From: an uncultured Planctomycetota bacterium
GTDB lineage: Bacteria; Planctomycetota; Planctomycetia; Isosphaerales; Isosphaeraceae
Assembly (NCBI GenBank): GCA_963845755.1
Contig: CAWJTV010000020.1
Location: 448,001-512,000 of the forward strand
Length of the DNA stretch: 64,000 bases
Reading direction: 5' to 3'
The position numbers and the translations under genes are program-made. Of the stretch, positions 1 to 8,242 are shown one piece after another. Each line of letters opens with the position of its first letter. The stretch's first letter is position 1. The notes beneath the pieces are model-generated. The model did not search any database. It worked only from the letters and a program-made list of their open reading frames with translations, and had not been told where the DNA came from.

Positions 1-282
1 ATGGCTGTTCCGCAGCTCACCCATGCTGAAGTGCGAGCTTTCGGCTCGCATGCCATGATCGGCCAGGATCTTCCGGACGGCTTTCCCTTCAGAGAGCGAT
101 GAAAACTCGGGACCGAAACCGATTGGCGAGCACAACTCGAGCCTTGTCACGCCGATCGCGGCCACCTTCGCGACGAGAGCTGGAAGGTCCCCGAGCATCG
201 AACGCAGTGGCCAGACCTGGCAGCCAATCGGCATCGGACTCGATTCGCCGGCGCTCTCGGACGCTGAAGCTTCGGTTGTCAT
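1..282 (-). CDS. Sugar phosphate isomerase/epimerase (xylose-isomerase-like TIM barrel), 5' part; runs off window edge
   Basis: Manual minus-strand translation: MTTEAS...PMPIGCQVWPLRSMLGDLPALVAKVAAIGVTRLELCSPIGFG...VRKILADHGMRAESSHFSMGELRNSH. Not in the ORF track because it has no stop in the window. Confidence 0.7.
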   Translation of the reverse strand, partial: MTTEASASESAGESSPMPIGCQVWPLRSMLGDLPALVAKVAAIGVTRLELCSPIGFGPEFSSLSEGKAVRKILADHGMRAESSHFSMGELRNSH

Positions 283-486
283 ATAGAAACCCTGGGATTT
301 CGGTTGCGCGTGATCGAGGAAAAAGCGGTTTCGTAATTGACCTCATTCTCGCCGATCCGATGGGGGCGTGCAATCCGGGCGATCTCAACGGGTCCGAGCG
401 CCGGTGAGCCGAGCCACGAACTCTGGTGTCGTCGGCACAGGGTGCGCGCTGATAAAATCCATCCGAGTCTTCCCGGGAGGCAGGAC

Positions 487-1593
487 ATGAAAATCACCCG
501 TAGTACCTTCGAGAGCCAGCGGCAGCGACGGTTCGGCGCCAAGAATCCAGAGCGGATGCCACTCGCATTCTGGGAGTGGATGGTCCGGGGTTCCGAAGAT
601 GCCCGGACCCGCGACGATTCCTCCAAGGAGAACGATCCCGCCGTCCTCGCTCACTCGCCCTACGACGTCCGCAGATATTTCGGCCGGGAGGGCGATTACG
701 CGGCGGGGCCTATCTGGAACTTCGAGCGTATGGGTTCGACGCGCACGCCGCATCCGGACGGCAGGATGATCTGCATCGGCGGCGAACACGAGGACTACTA
801 CGACCCCGATTTCTGCATCTACAACGACGACGACGTCCTCGATCTGGACGGCTCCATCGAGATCTATAGATATCCGAAAGACCACTTCCCGCCCACGGAC
901 TTCCACACCGCGACCCTCCTCGGCGAGCGTGTGATCATCATCGGACGGCTCGGGTATATGGGGGAACGCCATCCGGGGATAACGCCAGTGTTCGCCCTCG
1001 ACCTCGCAAGTTACCACATCGAAGAATTCCCTTCGCATGGGGAACTGCCCGTCTGGGTCTTCGGGCATGAGACCGAACTCGACTCAGATGGGCTCATCAT
1101 CATTCGCGGCGGCGAGATCTTCGACGAGACGTACGGCGATCGAGGGATCAAGCGCAATTTCGACGACTTCGCATATGACAGTGTTACCGGAATCTGGAAG
1201 CGTCTCACGAGTCGAGAATGGCGTCAGTTCTCCATTAGCGACGAAGGTGGAAAGACCTTCATGAAAGGTCCTCCTTTCCGGGGATGCTCGCCGGTCGCGG
1301 ATGTGCCCGTGGAGGAGACCCTCGACGTCGCCGACCCCTTCCTCTATGTCATGCCCAAGGCACTGCTTCCCCGAAGCGTCGCATACGAGACCATCTGGTC
1401 CGATGAGCCATCGCTGGATGAGCGGATCATCGTGGCGGGAATCCCCGTCTCCATCAAAATGGAGGCCTTCTCCATCGAGGTCATCATCGAGGGCGAGATG
1501 GACGAAGACATGGCAAACGCGCGTGCCGAGGACATCAGGGAAGGGGTCGAAGCCGATACGGGGCGGCCTTGCGTCTTGCAGAAATACACATGA
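487..1593 (+). CDS. Hypothetical protein, possibly Kelch-like beta-propeller
   Basis: ORF 337..1593; likely ATG at 487 after CAGGAC; motifs IGGEHEDYYDPDFCIYND, PPTDFHTATL..RVIIIG, FGH..L..GLIIIRGG. Confidence 0.6.
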   Translation: MKITRSTFESQRQRRFGAKNPERMPLAFWEWMVRGSEDARTRDDSSKENDPAVLAHSPYDVRRYFGREGDYAAGPIWNFERMGSTRTPHPDGRMICIGGEHEDYYDPDFCIYNDDDVLDLDGSIEIYRYPKDHFPPTDFHTATLLGERVIIIGRLGYMGERHPGITPVFALDLASYHIEEFPSHGELPVWVFGHETELDSDGLIIIRGGEIFDETYGDRGIKRNFDDFAYDSVTGIWKRLTSREWRQFSISDEGGKTFMKGPPFRGCSPVADVPVEETLDVADPFLYVMPKALLPRSVAYETIWSDEPSLDERIIVAGIPVSIKMEAFSIEVIIEGEMDEDMANARAEDIREGVEADTGRPCVLQKYT

Positions 1594-1705
1594 GGGCGAT
1601 CCGGCTGCGCGTGCCATACAGGTCTTTCAGTTCCCCGAGTTCCGCGGCCTGCTCCGGGCCGCTCACCATGAGCCCTGAGGATCAGGGCGGCGACTAAAAC
1701 ATCCC

Positions 1706-1842
1706 GGCTCATGGGCCCAGATTGGTGATGACCTCTGGTGTAGGGTGGGTGCAACCCACCATAACCCCAAGTCGGACGGTGGATTGCACCCACCCTACAA
1801 ATCTCATGGGCACTAGCAATTACCAATTTCTGCCCATGAGCC
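1706..1842. mobile_element. MITE-like element with imperfect ~25-bp terminal inverted repeats enclosing a GTAG REP doublet
   Basis: Left GGCTCATGGGCCCAGATTGGTGATG versus reverse complement of right end GGCTCATGGGCAGAAATTGGTAATT; no clear target duplication. Confidence 0.5.
1740..1798. repeat. GTAG-family REP doublet (REPIN-like)
   Basis: GTAGGGTGGGTGCAACCCACC ... GGTGGATTGCACCCACCCTAC, inverted pair; related copy at 47612..47667. Confidence 0.8.
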
Positions 1843-1870
1843 ACCCACGTAAGACCGCCACAGCGACTCG

Positions 1871-2370
1871 GGAATGTTGAGTTCTTCGAACACGTTGGCA
1901 TTCCGTATCAGCAATGAGGAGGCTCGACCGACTTCCCGGATCTCACAGAGCCGATGATTCCGCGCGAACATCCCAACAGGCTCTTGCGTCTATCAAGCAA
2001 AGGCTGCGAGGAGACGGCAAGAGCGACAGGCCGGCGCGAGCATCAAGCCGTCGTGATCGGTCAGGACTGGTATGCGAGGAAGGCGATGAACGGCGTGTGT
2101 CAACCGCTCGCGAGCTTGTCCAGACGTGCCGTTCGGTTCGACGGGGATCGGTCGAGTTCCCAGCGGTGGTATGCCCATCGCTGTTGACGCCCGGCCTGCC
2201 TCGATCTGCTTGTGGAAATGGAAAGGCCCGGTGTCGAAATCCACCGGGCCTTATCTTTGGATGGCGCTGGCGGGCGGGGATGGATCCGTCACGGCCCATC
2301 ACCAAATCCGGGAAACTCGGTAACAAACGCGGACAACGCATGGAGAATGTGCGAATCCGTATAATCGCAC
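1871..2370 (+). ncRNA. Large structured ncRNA candidate (GOLLD-like) upstream of tRNA array; ends approximate
   Basis: No credible ORF. Nested helices: 1871-1880/1895-1904, 1921-1931/2148-2158, 1980-1987/2017-2024, 2025-2031/2114-2120, 2035-2041/2106-2112, 2161-2169/2175-2183, 2223-2233/2242-2252. Strand inferred from the tRNAs. Confidence 0.6.
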
Positions 2371-2477
2371 CAAATACTTTGATAATTCGAGCTTCGGCTG
2401 GATTCTAAATCCACGGCGAGATAATGCATTAGCTCCGTAGCAAGGAGGCGGACCGAGTTCGACTCTCGATGCGGTTC
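2363..2477 (+). ncRNA. Non-canonical tRNA-like element
   Basis: AATCGCA(2363-69) pairs with TGCGGTT(2470-76); T-arm CGAG-TTCGACT-CTCG; internal hairpin TGGA-TTCTAAA-TCCA; about 115 nt, no canonical D-arm. Confidence 0.35.
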
Positions 2478-2491
2478 TTTCGATCAACGAT

Positions 2492-2563
2492 GGGCGGCTG
2501 GTCTAACGGGATGACACTTGGTTTGCACCCAGGAGATCGGGGTTCGATTCCCCGGCCGGTCCA
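2492..2563 (+). tRNA. tRNA-Ala(TGC)
   Basis: Anticodon arm CTTGG-TTTGCAC-CCAGG; T-arm CGGGG-TTCGATT-CCCCG; G3:U70 Ala determinant; irregular acceptor stem. Confidence 0.85.
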
Positions 2564-2645
2564 CTCCCTCGCGGGTTCGAGTCATGGTCGGGGTATCAGA
2601 ATTCCTTCGGAATCGTGAGTCCTCGACCGGAAAGCGGAAAGCGCG

Positions 2646-2718
2646 GCCTCGGTGGTGAAATGGACGATCATCCCTCGCTTCTAACGAGGTGTTCCAGGTT
2701 CGAGTCCTGGCCGAGGTA
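2646..2718 (+). tRNA. tRNA-Arg(TCT)
   Basis: Acceptor GCCTCGG/CCGAGGT; anticodon arm CCTCG-CTTCTAA-CGAGG; T-arm CCAGG-TTCGAGT-CCTGG. Confidence 0.92.
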
Positions 2719-2742
2719 TGACTGTTGAACGAAGTGGAATGA

Positions 2743-2815
2743 GGACCCGTCGTCTAGCGGCGAAGACGTCCCTTTGACGTGGGGAAGACCGGTGGTTCGA
2801 GTCCACCCGGGACCA
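2743..2815 (+). tRNA. tRNA-Val(GAC)
   Basis: Acceptor GGACCCG/CGGGACC (A.A mismatch); anticodon arm TCCCT-TTGACGT-GGGGA; T-arm GGTGG-TTCGAGT-CCACC. Confidence 0.85.
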
Positions 2816-2944
2816 CTGGTTGGCGAGACCCACTTGATATGGAAGCGCTACACGACTCGGGCGCGAGCGAGCGATGAGCCTTGCAGCTTCGACTTCCGCC
2901 CCTCGCGCTTCGACCCGGGCGAGTCCCGGGCAGGCCTTGATGAT

Positions 2945-3017
2945 GGTGATCGTGGTGTATCGGTCGCATCCGAGACTGTGAATCTCGACGTGCCGGGTTC
3001 AACTCCGGCCGAATACC
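2945..3017 (+). tRNA. tRNA-His(GTG)
   Basis: G-1, acceptor GTGATCG/CGAATAC; anticodon arm CGAGA-CTGTGAA-TCTCG; T-loop TTCAACT; C discriminator. Confidence 0.85.
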
Positions 3018-3035
3018 CTCGCTCAATCGAAAGAC

Positions 3036-3105
3036 AGGGGTGTGCTCCTGGGAGAGCAGCGAGCCTCCAAAACTCGTGCACAAGGTTCGAATCCTTGCAC
3101 TCCTG
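3036..3105 (+). tRNA. tRNA-Trp(CCA)
   Basis: Acceptor AGGGGTG/CACTCCT; anticodon arm CGAGC-CTCCAAA-ACTCG; T-arm CAAGG-TTCGAAT-CCTTG. Confidence 0.88.
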
Positions 3106-3129
3106 CTGGATGAATCTCCAGGCTCTCGT

Positions 3130-4387
3130 CTAAACTCGGCGCAAGAGCGGCAGTGGAGCGAACCCAGCCCCGAGGACGGATTCCGGAGGACATCCGAGCC
3201 AGTCGGCCAGGAGGCTCGCATAGACCTGGCGGAAGTCGGTGTGAAACTTCAAGTCGCCGTCGTCGAGGTCGTCCAGGCTCGGATGCTTGCCCACCAGGCC
3301 CGGCTTGGCGACCGGGCCGACGAGGAAGACCGGCGCCGCGGCGCCGTGGTCCGTCCCTTGCGAGGCGTTCTCTTGCACCCGGCGCCCGAATTCGCTGAAC
3401 GTCAGGACAACGACGCGGTCGGCCTGGCCGGCCGCGGTCAGGTCGTCATGGAACGCGGCGATCGAATCCGACAGCTCATTGAGCAGCGCCTGGTGGCTGC
3501 CGAGCTGGTTCGCGTGGGTGTCGAACCCGTCGAGCGATGTATAGAAGATCTGAGTACCGAAGTCCGCCTTGATCATCTGAGCGACCAGCTCCAGGCGACG
3601 CGCTAGCCCGAAATTGGGGTACTTGGGACCCGTTCCCGGCTTCGGCGCGAGCTGTTCGAGCCGGCTGCTGGATTCATACGCCGACAACGTCGTGCGGCTG
3701 ATGAAGCCGAGCAACGGGTCGTCCTCGCGACGCTCGACCCGCGCCATCTCCGATCAGCGCGGAGCGCGTCGCTTTCCGGTCAGGCTCGGCGCCGGCAACC
3801 CGGAGCTTGTAGGTCTCGAGGCTCTCCAGCGCCGGGACTTCAGTCTTGCGGCTGCGCAACGCCTGGGGCAAGCTGCGGCCGCCGACGTGCAATGCCGACG
3901 GATCGTCGCCCGGCTTGCGGCCCTTCGCATCGAGGGCCCGTCCCAGCCAGCCGGTCTCCACAGATGCAGGAGCATTGTCCAGCCGGGCGGTCTCCCAGAT
4001 CTCCATCGATCGGAAGTGAGAACGGTCGGGATTGGGGTAACCCACTCCCTGCACGATTCCCAGTCGTCCCTTTTCCAGCAGCTTTGCCATCCCTCCCATC
4101 GCGGGATGCAATCCGATCTCCGGGGTGACCTTATGGACCTGGCCCGGGGACGAGCGCAATGCCCTCCGCCCGCGGTTATAGCCATCGATCCCATGAGGGA
4201 CCACGGTATTCAATCCGTCATTTCCGCCCAGGAGTTGGACGACAACGAGAATTCGGTCTTTGGCTTTTCCGCCCATGGCCGCCTGGGCCGTACGGCCGAG
4301 GAAGCCGGGGATCGTCGTCGCGCCCATCGCGACCAGCGTACTGGTCCCGATCGACTGTTGAAGAAACTGGCGGCGGCTCGAAGGCAT
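3130..4387 (-). CDS. DUF1501 family protein with Tat signal (one frameshift near 3745)
   Basis: SRRQFL leader; VVQLLGGNDGLNTVVP, YPNPDRSHFRS, GFDTHANQ, FSEFGRR, GTDHG; ORFs 3674..4387 and 3130..3747. Confidence 0.9.
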
Positions 4388-4411
4388 GGATTCGTCCTCC
4401 CGGTCGGCGGG

Positions 4412-5822
4412 TCAGGTCAGTTGATATTCCGGTAGGGTCAGGATCCGTCGGGCGGCATCGCGGACGGCCGCATCGGCGCCGGCGTCTTTCGACGTCGCGG
4501 CCTTGACGATCGGCTCGCGTACTTTCGGGTCGAGCGGATCGGGGACGAGCAGGTCGAGCAAGAACCGAGCGGCCGCGTCGGGTCAACTCGCACCGTGGCG
4601 AGCGGCCAGCGCCCGCGGGTTGCAACGCCGGCCGACAGCCTGGTCGTCTTCGGAGATGAGTCGCAGGGCCAGGTTGGCGCGGGCGAGCATCGCGGTGGAG
4701 CTGACCCAGGCCGGTCCACCATCCCAGCCGGCGACGCTCGGAGGGGAATAGAGACTCTCACCCATGGCGACGCAGGTCTCGGCAAGGGCCTGCGCCTCGA
4801 CCGTCGGGTTGAGGATCTCCAGGGAGCGGATCGTCCCCACGGCAAATTCGACCGGACTCTTCACCCGCCGACGTCGCACGGCGGCATCGAAGAACAGGCG
4901 CGAGCGCAAGATCCGCGCCACGGGAACCTTGATCTGATAGTTCGACTCGCGAAACGCCTGGGCCAGCGGCGCGAGGAGCCGCTCCGATGGCGACTGGGAG
5001 TCGCTCACAAACTGCCGGAATAGCTTGCGGCAGATCCACTCGGCACACGCGGGTTGTTCCAGCAGGATCCCCGGAATGTCGTCGCCCGTCCATTTCCCGG
5101 TACGGCCCAGGACCTGCTTGACGCCATCGTCATGCTGGCGCGACGACCACCTGGAACTCGTCGCGGATCACGAACCAACCCGTGAACGCCCGGGCGGCTT
5201 CCCGGATGTCCTTCTCCGAATAGTGGCCCCGGCCGAGGCTGAAGAGCTCCATCACTTCCCGGGCGTAGTTCTCGTTGGGCTTGGCCTTGCGGTTGATGGT
5301 CGAATCCAGCCAGATCAGCATGGCCGGATCCTTTCCGATGGCCTGGAGCAAGGCGCGGAAGTCGCCCAGGGCCTGAGCTCGGAACAGGTTGTTCTGCCGC
5401 TGCATCAACGCAGTGCTCGTGACTTTGGCGATCGACGTCGCGAAATGGTTGTGCCAGAACAGGGTCATCCGTTCGCGGAGCGCGTGGGGTGTGAAGATCA
5501 ACCGGTACAGCCAGATGGCCTGGATGCCGGTCAAGTCGGCGGAGGGTCCCAGCTTGGCGGCCATCGCGTCGAGGAAGGATTCGAACTCGGCGGCCGTCGT
5601 GCCATCGCCGGCCTTCGGTTCCCCGACGAGCAGCCGATCGATACTGGCGGAGGGCCCGTCATGCAGGTCTCGCTGAAGGATCGCCCAGGGAGCGGCGAAA
5701 CCGGCCGCACGGTGCAGATGCGAGACGCTCGCCAGGTCCCACGGGTGCGATCGGTCCGGCTCGAACGGCGCCCAGGCACGATCCGGATCGTCCAGCAAAC
5801 TCTTCGGCGATGCGAACCTCAT
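4412..5822 (-). CDS. DUF1800 family protein (frameshifts near 5135 and 4585)
   Basis: LRERMTLFWHNHFATS, PAMLIWLD, PNENYAREVMELFSLG, PPSVAGW, C-terminal LPEYQLT*; canonical partner of DUF1501. Confidence 0.9.
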
Positions 5823-5834
5823 CCCGATGCCCTC

Positions 5835-7668
5835 TTACTTGGATAGATCGAGCTTCACCTGGAATCGAGTGGCATCCGGATCATCCCGAACCACCAGCCG
5901 GCCGTGACCCAGGTAGCGCAAGAAATCGAGGTTGAGTCCCACCCGCTGCTCCGCTTTCTCCTTCGTCGCGCCTTGCTTCAGCATGGCCTGCATGACCATA
6001 CGGCTTCGGTTCCGCTCCAGATAGTGGGCGATCGCCGTTCCGTCTGCTTCCACGCGGAACGTGGCCTTTTCCTCGGCCCGCAAGACGCCGGGCCCGCTCA
6101 TCGCCTTCAATTCCTTCACCAGCGCGCGGGCCAGGCCCGTGCTCGAGCTCAGGATGAAATACTTGCCGACCTGGCCCGCGGCCGGCGTGTAGTTGTACCG
6201 CTGGAGCGCTTGTTCGCTGGCGGGTGCCGACGTACGCGGGACCAGGAAACGCGTCGTCGCGATCGTGATCCCTTCGACCTCTTCGGATCCGAGCTCCATG
6301 ACGGCCGCCTTCTTCTGCGCCGCATCGACGTTGGCGATGGCGACGATCGACTGGAAGGCGATCTTGAGGCGAGACGCGAAATCATCGTCGGGCGCATTCA
6401 ATTCGGCCACCAGGGCAAACGCGGGAATCTTCGGATCGGGCTCGGGTTTTAGTGCGCGTGTAATCCTGATCGGCGATGACCAATCGCCAGTGGGGATCGA
6501 ACGCTCCCAGCACATCGGGGCCGAACTCACGACCGCCGAAGAACTGCCCCGCAAGCGTGTCGAGCTGGGCGAAGCCCTGGACCGTTTCCGGGGCGAACAG
6601 GTCGGCCCTCGATTCCCAGATCGTGGCCCAGTCGCGCCAGAGACTCAGCGAGGCGATGGTCCCCGGTGGATGAAGCAACGGCGAAGTTCCATGCCCTCCG
6701 TCGGGCACATAACCCTTGATTGTCGCCGGACGCCCCTCCTTCGAAAGGGGCACTTCGAGCGCCGCGGTCAACTCAGTGGCCGACCAGCGGATACTACCTT
6801 GAATCGAGTGGGCCTGACGCAGAACCTCGTACCAGGACCCGAAGAAGAGAACGATCCCGGTATCCCCTTTCTCCGGCAGCGTAAACTTCTTGGGATCGAG
6901 CGTTTTCAGCCTGTCCAGGTCGGCGTATCCCCATACGTCGGCGTCAGCCCCCTGGCGCTCTCGGATCGCTTTCCACTCAGGCTGATCAGTGAACCGGAGG
7001 AGGGCCGGCTTGATCTTCTTGGCATCGCCGAGATCGCCCGCGGACTTCGTCTCAATGCGCTCATCGATCAAACGAACGAGGTTCTTCGGCGAATTCGAGA
7101 TCGCCAGCGTCCCGGCGATGATGGTATAAGCCGCCCCCTTCTCGCCGCCGACCGCGTACACGACCACACCCTTGTGGTCGGATGTCTGCACCGGGTCGGG
7201 CTTGGCCTTGTTCTTCGCGTCCTCGCGCGCCAGTTTCAGGAGCACCTGGTGCGTTCGTTCTAGCAGAGACAGGTCTTTCGGCGTGATCAACAAGTAAACT
7301 CGGGGCTCCTGACCCGCCTCGGCCTCGACCGCCGCCACGATCCCACCGCCGGTCAGATCGCGAAGCCCTCGGTCCCAGGTGGTCCCGACCTGCGACGCGA
7401 CCAGATTGACCACCGCCTTGAGTTGTTGGAACTGGTTGCCTTCCAGGAATTCGCGGTATTGCGGCAAGACGCCGAGATATTGCTGGATTCGCGGGTCGGT
7501 CAGTCGGTCGAGCAGGATCTCCGGATGCGGAATCTCCAGACAGACCACGGGACGGGGGTCGATGACCGTCGCGGCCGGGCGTTGTCCCTTGGCCGTCTGC
7601 GCCGCCGCCGCGGGAATGAGCCATCCAACCATTGCCAGGAGGATCAGCCAGAGCCTCGGTGTTTCCAT
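5835..7668 (-). CDS. Secreted hypothetical protein co-transcribed with DUF1800/DUF1501 (frameshift near 6450)
   Basis: Signal peptide METPRLWLILLAMVGWLIPAAAA; ORFs 6382..7785 and 5835..6554 join. Confidence 0.7.
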
Positions 7669-8242
7669 TCTGGACCGACTCGTTGGCAGGAACCTGTTGC
7701 TCGGGAGCGGGGATCGATAAGGACCATGATCGCTTTGATGTTTGCGCGGATTGATCTCTGTCCGCGAAGTTCTCGGCGCTATCATCGGTGGTGCCCCTCA
7801 GGTCGCCTCATACGGATCGCGGCACGGGGTCCAAGTGGGCTCCGGCGCCCGGATCGTCTGACCCCATTTCCGCAACCAATACCCCGGTCAGCCGCAAATC
7901 GGTTTCAACAATTCGCATCGGACACGCCAAATCACCGAGGACGAGGATGGCGCGGGGAAAGCGTAGGCTGGAATCCAATTGTAGCAATGGAATGGAACAC
8001 TGCTCGAGTCATAGGGGAGTCTTCTGACGCCGATTCTCCGGAACGAGTTGACCCGGCGAGACGGTCGTCCCGACCCGACTCAACTCGATCCCCATTACCG
8101 TCGGCGGATGGGCTTCCCTTCGGTTTCCTGCGAATTCATCGAATCTCGGACCTGATCCGCCGAATCCCCTGAAACAAGCAGCCCCTCGCCGGACAATTCG
8201 TGCCGCAGGGGCGCTTCCTCTGTCGCGATACAGACATCTTCG

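Follow-up and report, generated by a model that had tools for sequence, protein, structure and literature searches.

A conserved leader before tRNA arrays of Planctomycetia as a probable ribosome-mediated transcription attenuator

The amino acid operons trp, his, leu and pheA are under the control of classical leader-peptide attenuators, in which a terminator and an antiterminator share a strand and exclude each other, and a ribosome at the end of a leader open reading frame (ORF) blocks the antiterminator. Among RNAs that adjoin tRNA genes, GOLLD RNA belongs to the class of large (over 500 nucleotides, nt), multi-domain RNAs supported by covariation. We analysed a conserved element at the head of a tRNA array in a 64,000-nt stretch of planctomycete DNA (the window, G000:C20:448001-512000; coordinates are window positions), where the original prediction had placed a GOLLD-like RNA at 1871-2370. 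Comparison of this element with its relatives suggests that positions 1959-2262 are a transcription leader of the tRNA array and probably work as a ribosome-mediated (leader-peptide) transcription attenuator.

The closest described systems are the whiB7 attenuator of mycobacteria and the long tRNA array of a cyanobacterium. According to the accessible text of its description, the attenuator formed by the upstream ORF of whiB7 yields a rho-independent terminator when translation is efficient, and an antiterminator with read-through under translation stress (10.1101/2023.06.02.543512). The planctomycete leader resembles it in having a short leader ORF with a varied, poorly conserved peptide, and would likewise sense general impairment of translation and not the supply of one amino acid. 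As far as that text goes, the two differ in their targets, a transcription factor gene for whiB7 and tRNA genes here, and in sequence, which is unrelated; a stop codon inside the antiterminator and an ORF length fixed near 33 codons are features of the planctomycete element, for which a mechanism is proposed from sequence comparison. Long tRNA arrays are widespread, but the reason for their retention and the manner of their control are known for a single cyanobacterium, which uses a repressor. The long array of Anabaena sp. PCC 7120 (the trn operon) is normally silent and is induced by translational stress (PMC8421152). Its control, in the same parts of the sources, lies with TrcR, a ribbon-helix-helix repressor whose binding sites are direct repeats covering the -10 box and the start site of a sigma-70-type promoter (PMC8421152, PMC10272220). 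The planctomycete arrays resemble it in that their supernumerary tRNAs stand apart from a housekeeping set, and a stress-induced output is predicted for them; they differ in that the Anabaena array is under repressor control, with no leader ORF or attenuator described in that text (PMC8421152). Long arrays in Planctomycetes are mentioned there, and the accessible text has 0 occurrences of the strings 'leader', 'attenuat' and 'terminator'. Literature searches, supplementary files aside, turned up neither an attenuator nor a leader ORF described for the front of tRNA arrays, and the element corresponds to no family of Rfam 15.

The element has a conserved anatomy (Table 1) with two competing helices and a conserved ORF, and it is linked to tRNA arrays. 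The conserved unit is one block of approximately 290-310 nt, which in the window occupies 1959-2262 on the forward strand, 304 of the 500 nt first marked out; the interval 1871-2370 did contain a conserved feature, and conservation is confined to this part of it. By BLAST, 1844-2130 matched nothing but itself within its own genome, 2169-2264 recurred before other tRNA arrays of the same genome and of relatives, and 1871-1958 and 2263-2441 had no relatives; the full unit was delimited by extending the alignment upstream. Of the 121 family genomes, BLAST detected the unit in 26 and covariance model R1, which was built from the 3' part of the unit, in 43 (63 matches). R1 also found the unit in 11 of 115 sampled genomes from four other families of the class, the class-wide search being a sample of 151 genomes under strict filters. 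Seven pattern matches in a species-representative collection came from metagenome-assembled genomes of Isosphaeraceae, Isosphaerales or Planctomycetota. The carriers are mostly metagenome-assembled genomes, in which single-base insertions or deletions may be assembly errors; several carriers consist of one contig and could be isolates. We regard the unit as a previously undescribed element, conserved at the RNA level, that heads arrays in planctomycetes. The part of the original prediction that had homologues recurring before planctomycete tRNA arrays was borne out, as was the presence of five tRNAs immediately downstream of the region.

Less of the predicted architecture survived comparison. 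The minimum free energy (MFE) structure of the 500 nt is rich in helices, and at least seven nested ones had been claimed; RNAalifold on 23 homologues retained only three, and the consensus structure holds only 3-4 conserved helices. The long-range stem closing the predicted domain exists as a complementarity of 1922-1931 with 2148-2157 in the sequence and in the MFE structure, yet the 5' half of this stem (1921-1931) falls outside the conserved unit, on its upstream side, and nothing in other copies corresponds to it. The native 500 nt folded at -206 kcal/mol against -191.3 +/- 6.4 for shuffled sequences (z -2.30), and 0 of 100 shuffles were as stable; the opposite strand gave z -2.72. Since z is alike on both strands and modest for DNA of 60% GC, fold stability does not discriminate, and the excess over shuffled controls lends the large-RNA claim no weight. 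When the Rfam 15 models were run over window positions 1-8000 at E<=1 (cmscan), the output was the five tRNAs together with four chance matches below threshold at other places; nothing fell within 1871-2370, neither GOLLD, ROOL, OLE and the T-box model nor any other family. The segment 2336-2366, likened in the original prediction to the GOLLD 3' domain, belongs to the non-conserved spacer and has none of these matches.

The 3' part of the unit can form two alternative helices. When the nascent RNA was folded with RNAalifold without the 3' arm of the terminator, 2184-2196 paired with 2225-2237 in 12 pairs around one C-C mismatch. Because the antiterminator takes as its partners the 5' arm of the terminator and the first bases of its loop, the two helices are mutually exclusive. 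The antiterminator was paired in 95.6% of alignment cells with 23 copies and in 90.9% with 69 copies, compared to 23-38% in controls in which the partner strand was moved by 1-3 columns. Among the 69 copies 22 antiterminator cells carried a double change, a count matched by 0 of 500 shuffles, and one-sided changes retained pairing on the forward strand only. This 69-copy alignment was fitted to the terminator and to a hairpin within the ORF, not to the antiterminator. The terminator was paired in 91.5% of its cells, with changes on both sides in 7 of its 12 pairs (69 copies) and with G-U wobbles compatible with the forward strand only. For the terminator and the ORF hairpin together, 90.6% of cells were paired and 76 double-change cells were found in 13 pairs.

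Two comparisons concern positions that serve both helices. In copy L124 one shared position has changed from G to C, and both its antiterminator partner and its terminator partner have changed from C to G. In the six copies with C instead of U at another shared position, the antiterminator partner was G in six and A in none, whereas elsewhere it was G in 29 and A in 28 (Fisher p=0.029). In the window the GC-rich terminator-like hairpin of 11-12 bp had a calculated energy of -23.0 kcal/mol and the antiterminator region one of -24.4. The MFE structure of the nascent leader includes the antiterminator, while that of the complete leader (-117.1) includes the terminator, compared to -107.7 when the antiterminator was forced. 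One strand is thus common to antiterminator and terminator, and the 5' strand of the antiterminator can be covered by a ribosome near the ORF end.

The region had been described as having no credible ORF, but it contains one of 33 codons, the position, length and stop codon of which are kept among relatives. With 23 copies, 21 had an uninterrupted frame between the aligned start and stop codons; with 61 copies, 54 did. The start codon was ATG in 56/61 and GTG in 3/61 copies, all three of the latter with AGGAG before the start, and GAGG, GGGA or AGGAG precedes the start codon in most copies. The stop codon was TGA in 58 and TAA in one of the 61 copies; among 69 copies there were 67 TGA, one TAA and one GGA. 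An in-frame ATG stood exactly 33 codons before the stop in 43/69 copies across the class, other families included, and an ATG or GTG lay 27-38 codons upstream of the stop in 62/69. The ORF measured 99 nt in 42 copies. Of the other lengths, 48, 81, 84, 87, 90, 93, 96, 102 and 105 nt are multiples of three and 61, 86, 91, 98 and 100 nt are not, so that with the 99-nt class excluded 9 of 14 variant length classes kept the frame (binomial p=0.017); the segments flanking the ORF varied in length by single bases with no period of three. No Pfam family was matched by the peptide. The leader offers one feature of a leader-ORF attenuator, a short conserved ORF with a start codon and a ribosome-binding motif, although the codon-position pattern of this ORF is not protein-like. 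We read the ORF as kept for being translated and not for its product, as is usual in leader peptides, and its translation is predicted on this basis.

The hairpin inside the ORF had changes on both sides in all six of its pairs among the 69 copies. In the trp leader the 1:2 hairpin is the analogous structure, at which RNA polymerase pauses. The ORF hairpin may, by that analogy, be a pause hairpin for RNA polymerase, and in having such a candidate pause site, as in its leader ORF, its mutually exclusive helices with a shared strand and its ORF end placed to let a ribosome block the antiterminator, the leader is like the classical attenuators. It is unlike them in lacking a series of codons for a single amino acid and in having tRNAs, not biosynthetic enzymes, as targets.

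Two other roles for the end of the ORF were considered. Selenocysteine recoding of the UGA was rejected because the stretch from the stop codon to the terminator stem varies by single bases between 31 and 36 nt, so that no frame continues past the UGA. A protein-level role of the peptide, an arrest peptide as suggested by its recurring C-terminal ...P-x-R-x end included, appears less likely, because third positions are invariant at that end, which points to constraint on the nucleotides. As separate observations, the peptide ends (2170-2187) recur as ...(Y/H)-P-x-R-x across families, and nearly every copy stops at UGA with C as the next base. UGA-C is a context in which translation terminates weakly. 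Slow termination or a nascent-peptide effect at the UGA could prolong the stay of the ribosome on the antiterminator strand, although the invariant third positions favour an RNA-level constraint over this idea.

The 5' edge of conservation is formed by a promoter-like box. In alignment A2 the box columns are the most conserved of the 5' half, and the spacing is fixed over a variable spacer. GAAC-N17-CGTC, at 1966-1990 in the window, was present in 51 of 67 copies compared to 0.21 expected from shuffles; copies outside the family read GAACC...CGTCTAA. Extracytoplasmic function (ECF) sigma factor promoters have, in the accessible text of their descriptions, a -35 core GAAC and a -10 CGTC about 16-17 nt apart (PMC3326320, PMC3426412), and this motif with this spacing is found at 1966-1990. 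A simple promoter scan of 1500-3300 gave 0 sigma-70-like sites. From its sequence the box is a putative ECF-sigma-type promoter. A GCGTCT...AGACGC hairpin directly after the box was rejected as an RNA structure on inspection of A2 by eye: its 3' arm varies without compensation and its 5' arm never varies, so the 5' arm was read as the -10 element. A fourth copy of the box in the same genome (G000:C20:720434, minus strand; L051 at approximately 4400-4445) reads GGCGCGAACATCC-N13-GCGTCT after an A-rich stretch, and neither a leader nor a tRNA nor any obvious gene follows it. An orphan promoter, a small RNA or the remnant of a lost array could each account for this copy. Within the 5' untranslated region (UTR) a variable stem-loop (GACGGC 2013-2018 with GCCGTC 2047-2052) keeps its pairing in A2 rows of different sequence, as seen by eye and not counted.

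Table 1. Features of the leader and of the tRNA array behind it (window positions).
Feature	Position	Strand	Details or method
Promoter-like box	1962-1991	+	GCGCGAACATCC 1962-1973 (GAAC core 1966-1969), 17-nt spacer, CGTC in GCGTCT 1986-1991
Leader 5' UTR	1992-2085	+	Length 44-229 nt among copies, no period of three
Shine-Dalgarno-like motif	2076-2083	+	GAGGAAGG; ends 2 nt before ATG
Leader ORF, 33 codons	2086-2187	+	ATG 2086-2088, TGA 2185-2187
Hairpin inside ORF	2139-2144 with 2149-2154	+	88.8% of cells paired, 69 copies
Antiterminator 5' strand	2184-2196	+	TTGACGCCCGGCC; contains stop codon; pairs with 2225-2237
Shared strand (antiterminator 3' strand, terminator 5' arm and loop start)	2225-2237	+	GGCCCGGTGTCGA
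Intrinsic-terminator-like hairpin	2223-2233 with 2242-2252	+	Loop 2234-2241; U-rich tail TTATCTTT 2251-2258
tRNA-Thr(TGT) relic, 3' half, between leader and first intact tRNA	2442-2478	+	BLAST
tRNA array: Ala-TGC, Arg-TCT, Val-GAC, Ser(GGA) relic, His-GTG, Trp-CCA	2492-3106	+	ARAGORN, Rfam tRNA
tRNA-Ser(GGA) relic, 3' part	~2868-2909	+	BLAST

In 58 of the 61 family copies a tRNA array on the same strand follows the leader, at a distance of 4-232 nt, and 14 of 14 copies from other families likewise precede such an array. The family copies without an array are L086, which is full-length and has no tRNA within 800 nt, and the partial copies L108 and L109. The gap between leader and tRNA was <=15 nt in 29 of the 58 copies, which leaves no room for a separate promoter, so that these arrays must be transcribed through the hairpin. 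Twelve kinds of tRNA stand first in the arrays (Phe 28, Pro-GGG 10, Asp 5 and nine others).

The source genome (14.27 Mb in 49 contigs, 88% complete) has three leader copies, each heading an array: that of the window with its five tRNAs, one with the order Pro-Lys-Ile-Ile that lies 18 kb upstream on the same contig, and one of 36 tRNAs on C41. By ARAGORN, 45 of its 102 tRNAs are in these arrays. As the 57 others form an almost complete dispersed set, the arrays make up a second, near-complete and largely redundant set. The genome thus shows the combination by which long arrays are recognised in the accessible part of PMC8421152, supernumerary tRNA genes beside a dispersed housekeeping set. As a side observation, the arrays C41:590256-593662 and C20:431840-432244 carry tRNA-Ile(TAT). 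By ARAGORN, Arg-GCG, Ile-TAT, Leu-CAA, Lys-TTT and Val-GAC were found in arrays only, which in an 88%-complete genome is not proof of absence elsewhere; if other loci really lack them, complete silencing of the arrays is not possible.

The array of the window is a short and partly decayed piece, with five tRNAs and two relics behind an intact leader. Positions 2442-2500 align at 89.8% identity with a piece of G001:C9 made up of the 37 nt at the 3' end of tRNA-Thr(TGT), the following spacer and the beginning of tRNA-Ala. Similarly, 2868-2945 is an 82% match to the 3' part of tRNA-Ser(GGA) and the following spacer in the C41 array, and the related arrays on G001:C8, G070 and G074 have an intact Ser-GGA between Val-GAC and His. 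In a separate genome, copy L018 (G008:C30, approximately 2937-3195, minus strand) interrupts a series of 27 tRNA genes, with 590 nt between it and the preceding sub-array and 152 nt between it and the following one; a second leader copy stands further up, at a distance of about 3 kb (G008:C30:552349-552477). Long arrays may thus consist of several units with separate attenuation.

The following course of events is proposed for the leader. Transcription would start a few bases downstream of the ECF-sigma-like GAAC-N17-CGTC promoter, and the nascent RNA would carry the Shine-Dalgarno-like motif and the 33-codon ORF, the UGA of which sits inside the 5' strand of the antiterminator. A ribosome following close behind the polymerase and standing at the last codons or at the UGA would cover 2184-2196; the shared strand would then pair with the 3' arm, and transcription would end at the U-rich tail before the tRNAs, with a terminated leader transcript of approximately 260 nt. 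If translation of the leader were slow, stalled or not begun, the antiterminator would form first and the polymerase would read into the array. Scarcity of charged tRNA, damage to tRNAs or ribosomes and translation inhibitors are possible triggers, and the array would in this way be a spare tRNA set turned on by translational stress. The direction of the switch, from impaired translation to read-through, is predicted by analogy with described attenuators. Classical attenuators have a conserved helix that restores termination without ribosome loading; none was found here, and the untranslated state is for this reason predicted to be ON.

Several observations weigh against an attenuator of this kind. 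Of the 22 double-change cells of the antiterminator, 20 are at the outermost pair (U-A to G-C), and the remaining changes are mostly one-sided and wobble-compatible (G-U to A-U, U-G to U-A, C-G to U-G). Shuffles take no account of the relatedness of the sequences, so their counts make the result look more significant than it is. The U-tract is not continuous, and a simple terminator scan of 1500-3300 gave 0 sites. The leader of the window itself is 232 nt from the first intact tRNA, the longest of the 58 gaps, with a relic between. Within the ORF the entropy at codon positions 1, 2 and 3 was 0.96, 1.17 and 1.12, which is not protein-like, and some third positions are invariant; together these indicate that constraint at the nucleotide level dominates and that the peptide is not conserved. 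The ORF frame was open in 23/23 copies, and other frames in 5-19 of the 23, open frames being common in GC-rich DNA. Seven of the 61 copies have no intact ORF, and two of these are full-length with a length change of +1 or -1. Finally, the aligned leader peptides have no run of one regulatory codon or residue, unlike those of classical attenuators; this lack fits the general-stress (whiB7-like) subclass and not the classical amino-acid one.

The nucleotide-level conservation is the ground on which a second explanation stands, that of a terminator/antiterminator riboregulator set by a trans-acting factor (uncharged tRNA, an alarmone-like small molecule or a protein), with the ORF incidental. 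It would account for the invariant third positions and for position 2 being the most variable, for the covarying hairpin within the ORF, for the other frames being often open and for the poor conservation of the peptide. Against an incidental ORF stand a near-invariant start with an ATG to GTG swap and a Shine-Dalgarno-like motif ahead, an in-frame stop with one TGA to TAA swap, a 33-codon length held across families, and insertions and deletions that are mostly multiples of three. T-box and riboswitch families of Rfam were not matched in the scan above, and 3-4 conserved helices are little for a ligand pocket. We consider this riboregulator unlikely, though it is the strongest of the alternatives.

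Still less probable is a self-contained small gene or small RNA that ends at a terminator of its own and happens to lie upstream of the arrays; the antiterminator pairing would then play no regulatory part, and array expression would come from constitutive leak-through or from elsewhere. The hairpin and U-rich tail would indeed end a transcript of approximately 260 nt, one full-length copy (L086) lacks nearby tRNAs, and the box occurs once in the genome without leader or tRNAs (C20:720434). Against such a gene, all but three of the family copies and every copy outside the family head arrays, half of the family ones at the short gaps described above; the antiterminator strand, though it extends past the stop codon, is among the most conserved parts and covaries with the terminator arm; and the peptide has no protein-like conservation.

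The possibility of a DNA-level element, either the end or attachment site of a mobile unit carrying arrays or a repressor platform as in Anabaena, appears very remote. That the unit heads arrays with different first tRNAs and splits one long array (L018) suggests that it moves or recombines with array pieces, horizontal spread of long arrays is reported in the accessible part of PMC8421152, and the upstream box acts on DNA under any explanation. RNA is favoured, however, by G-U pairs that fit one strand only and by compensatory changes found in three helices, and the unit is always on the tRNA strand. We give hardly any credence to a chromosomal GOLLD variant of compact size, or to a different large and ornate structured RNA spanning about 500 nt, for which the adjoining tRNA genes, the helix-rich MFE structure and the failure of the forward-strand shuffles to fold as well would speak, since the locus offers instead a unit of approximately 300 nt with a short ORF and three helices by RNAalifold, falling short of a large, multi-domain, covarying RNA, matches no GOLLD, ROOL or OLE model, folds no better for its composition than its opposite strand, and has no viral context, as 63 stretches of viral contigs that fitted a loose pattern gave 0 matches to R1 at E<=0.01 and were about the hand-estimated chance yield of so degenerate a pattern.

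The ribosome-mediated attenuator remains the reading that we prefer. Its fullest form is that Planctomycetia keep a spare, near-complete tRNA set under a translation sensor in cis (the 33-codon ORF with its UGA in the antiterminator) and an ECF-sigma-type promoter, transcribed only when ribosomes lag behind the polymerase, that this control arose independently of the repressor control found in the cyanobacterium, and that it is the first attenuator known for tRNA genes; we put the chances for and against this whole proposal at about equal. If true, it would be a second and independent way of providing spare tRNAs whenever translation is impaired, would bring genes for parts of the translation machinery under ribosome-mediated attenuation, and would couple tRNA supply to translation capacity in a feedback loop. 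The novel point would be the class of target genes, tRNA genes, for a ribosome-mediated attenuator of the general-stress type. The element can also mark the heads of regulated tRNA arrays in annotation of Planctomycetia. It is compact (approximately 300 nt), and since several families carry it there is a choice of strains.

In the surroundings of the leader, the gene on the 5' side (337-1593) has a weak Kelch-like match. No protein of a Pfam family was found between this gene and the first tRNA in the Pfam comparison, and the long ORFs spanning the region (164 amino acids on the forward and 132 on the reverse strand) matched no Pfam family. A palindromic repeat of approximately 138 nt at 1706-1843, with inverted arms at approximately 1740-1800, is dispersed in the source genome and in the same-genus genome G001 with identities up to 86-89%; a query containing it gave 58 matches in the source genome. 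It looks like a miniature inverted-repeat transposable element (MITE) or a repetitive extragenic palindromic (REP) sequence, and is the source of spurious mir-3165 matches in Rfam. Downstream of the array, at 3130-4387 and 4583-5822 on the minus strand, are DUF1501 and DUF1800 genes, each split into two overlapping or adjacent ORFs. These are either pseudogenes or the result of single-base insertion or deletion errors in the assembly, and they bear on how the two frameshifted leader copies in other genomes are read.

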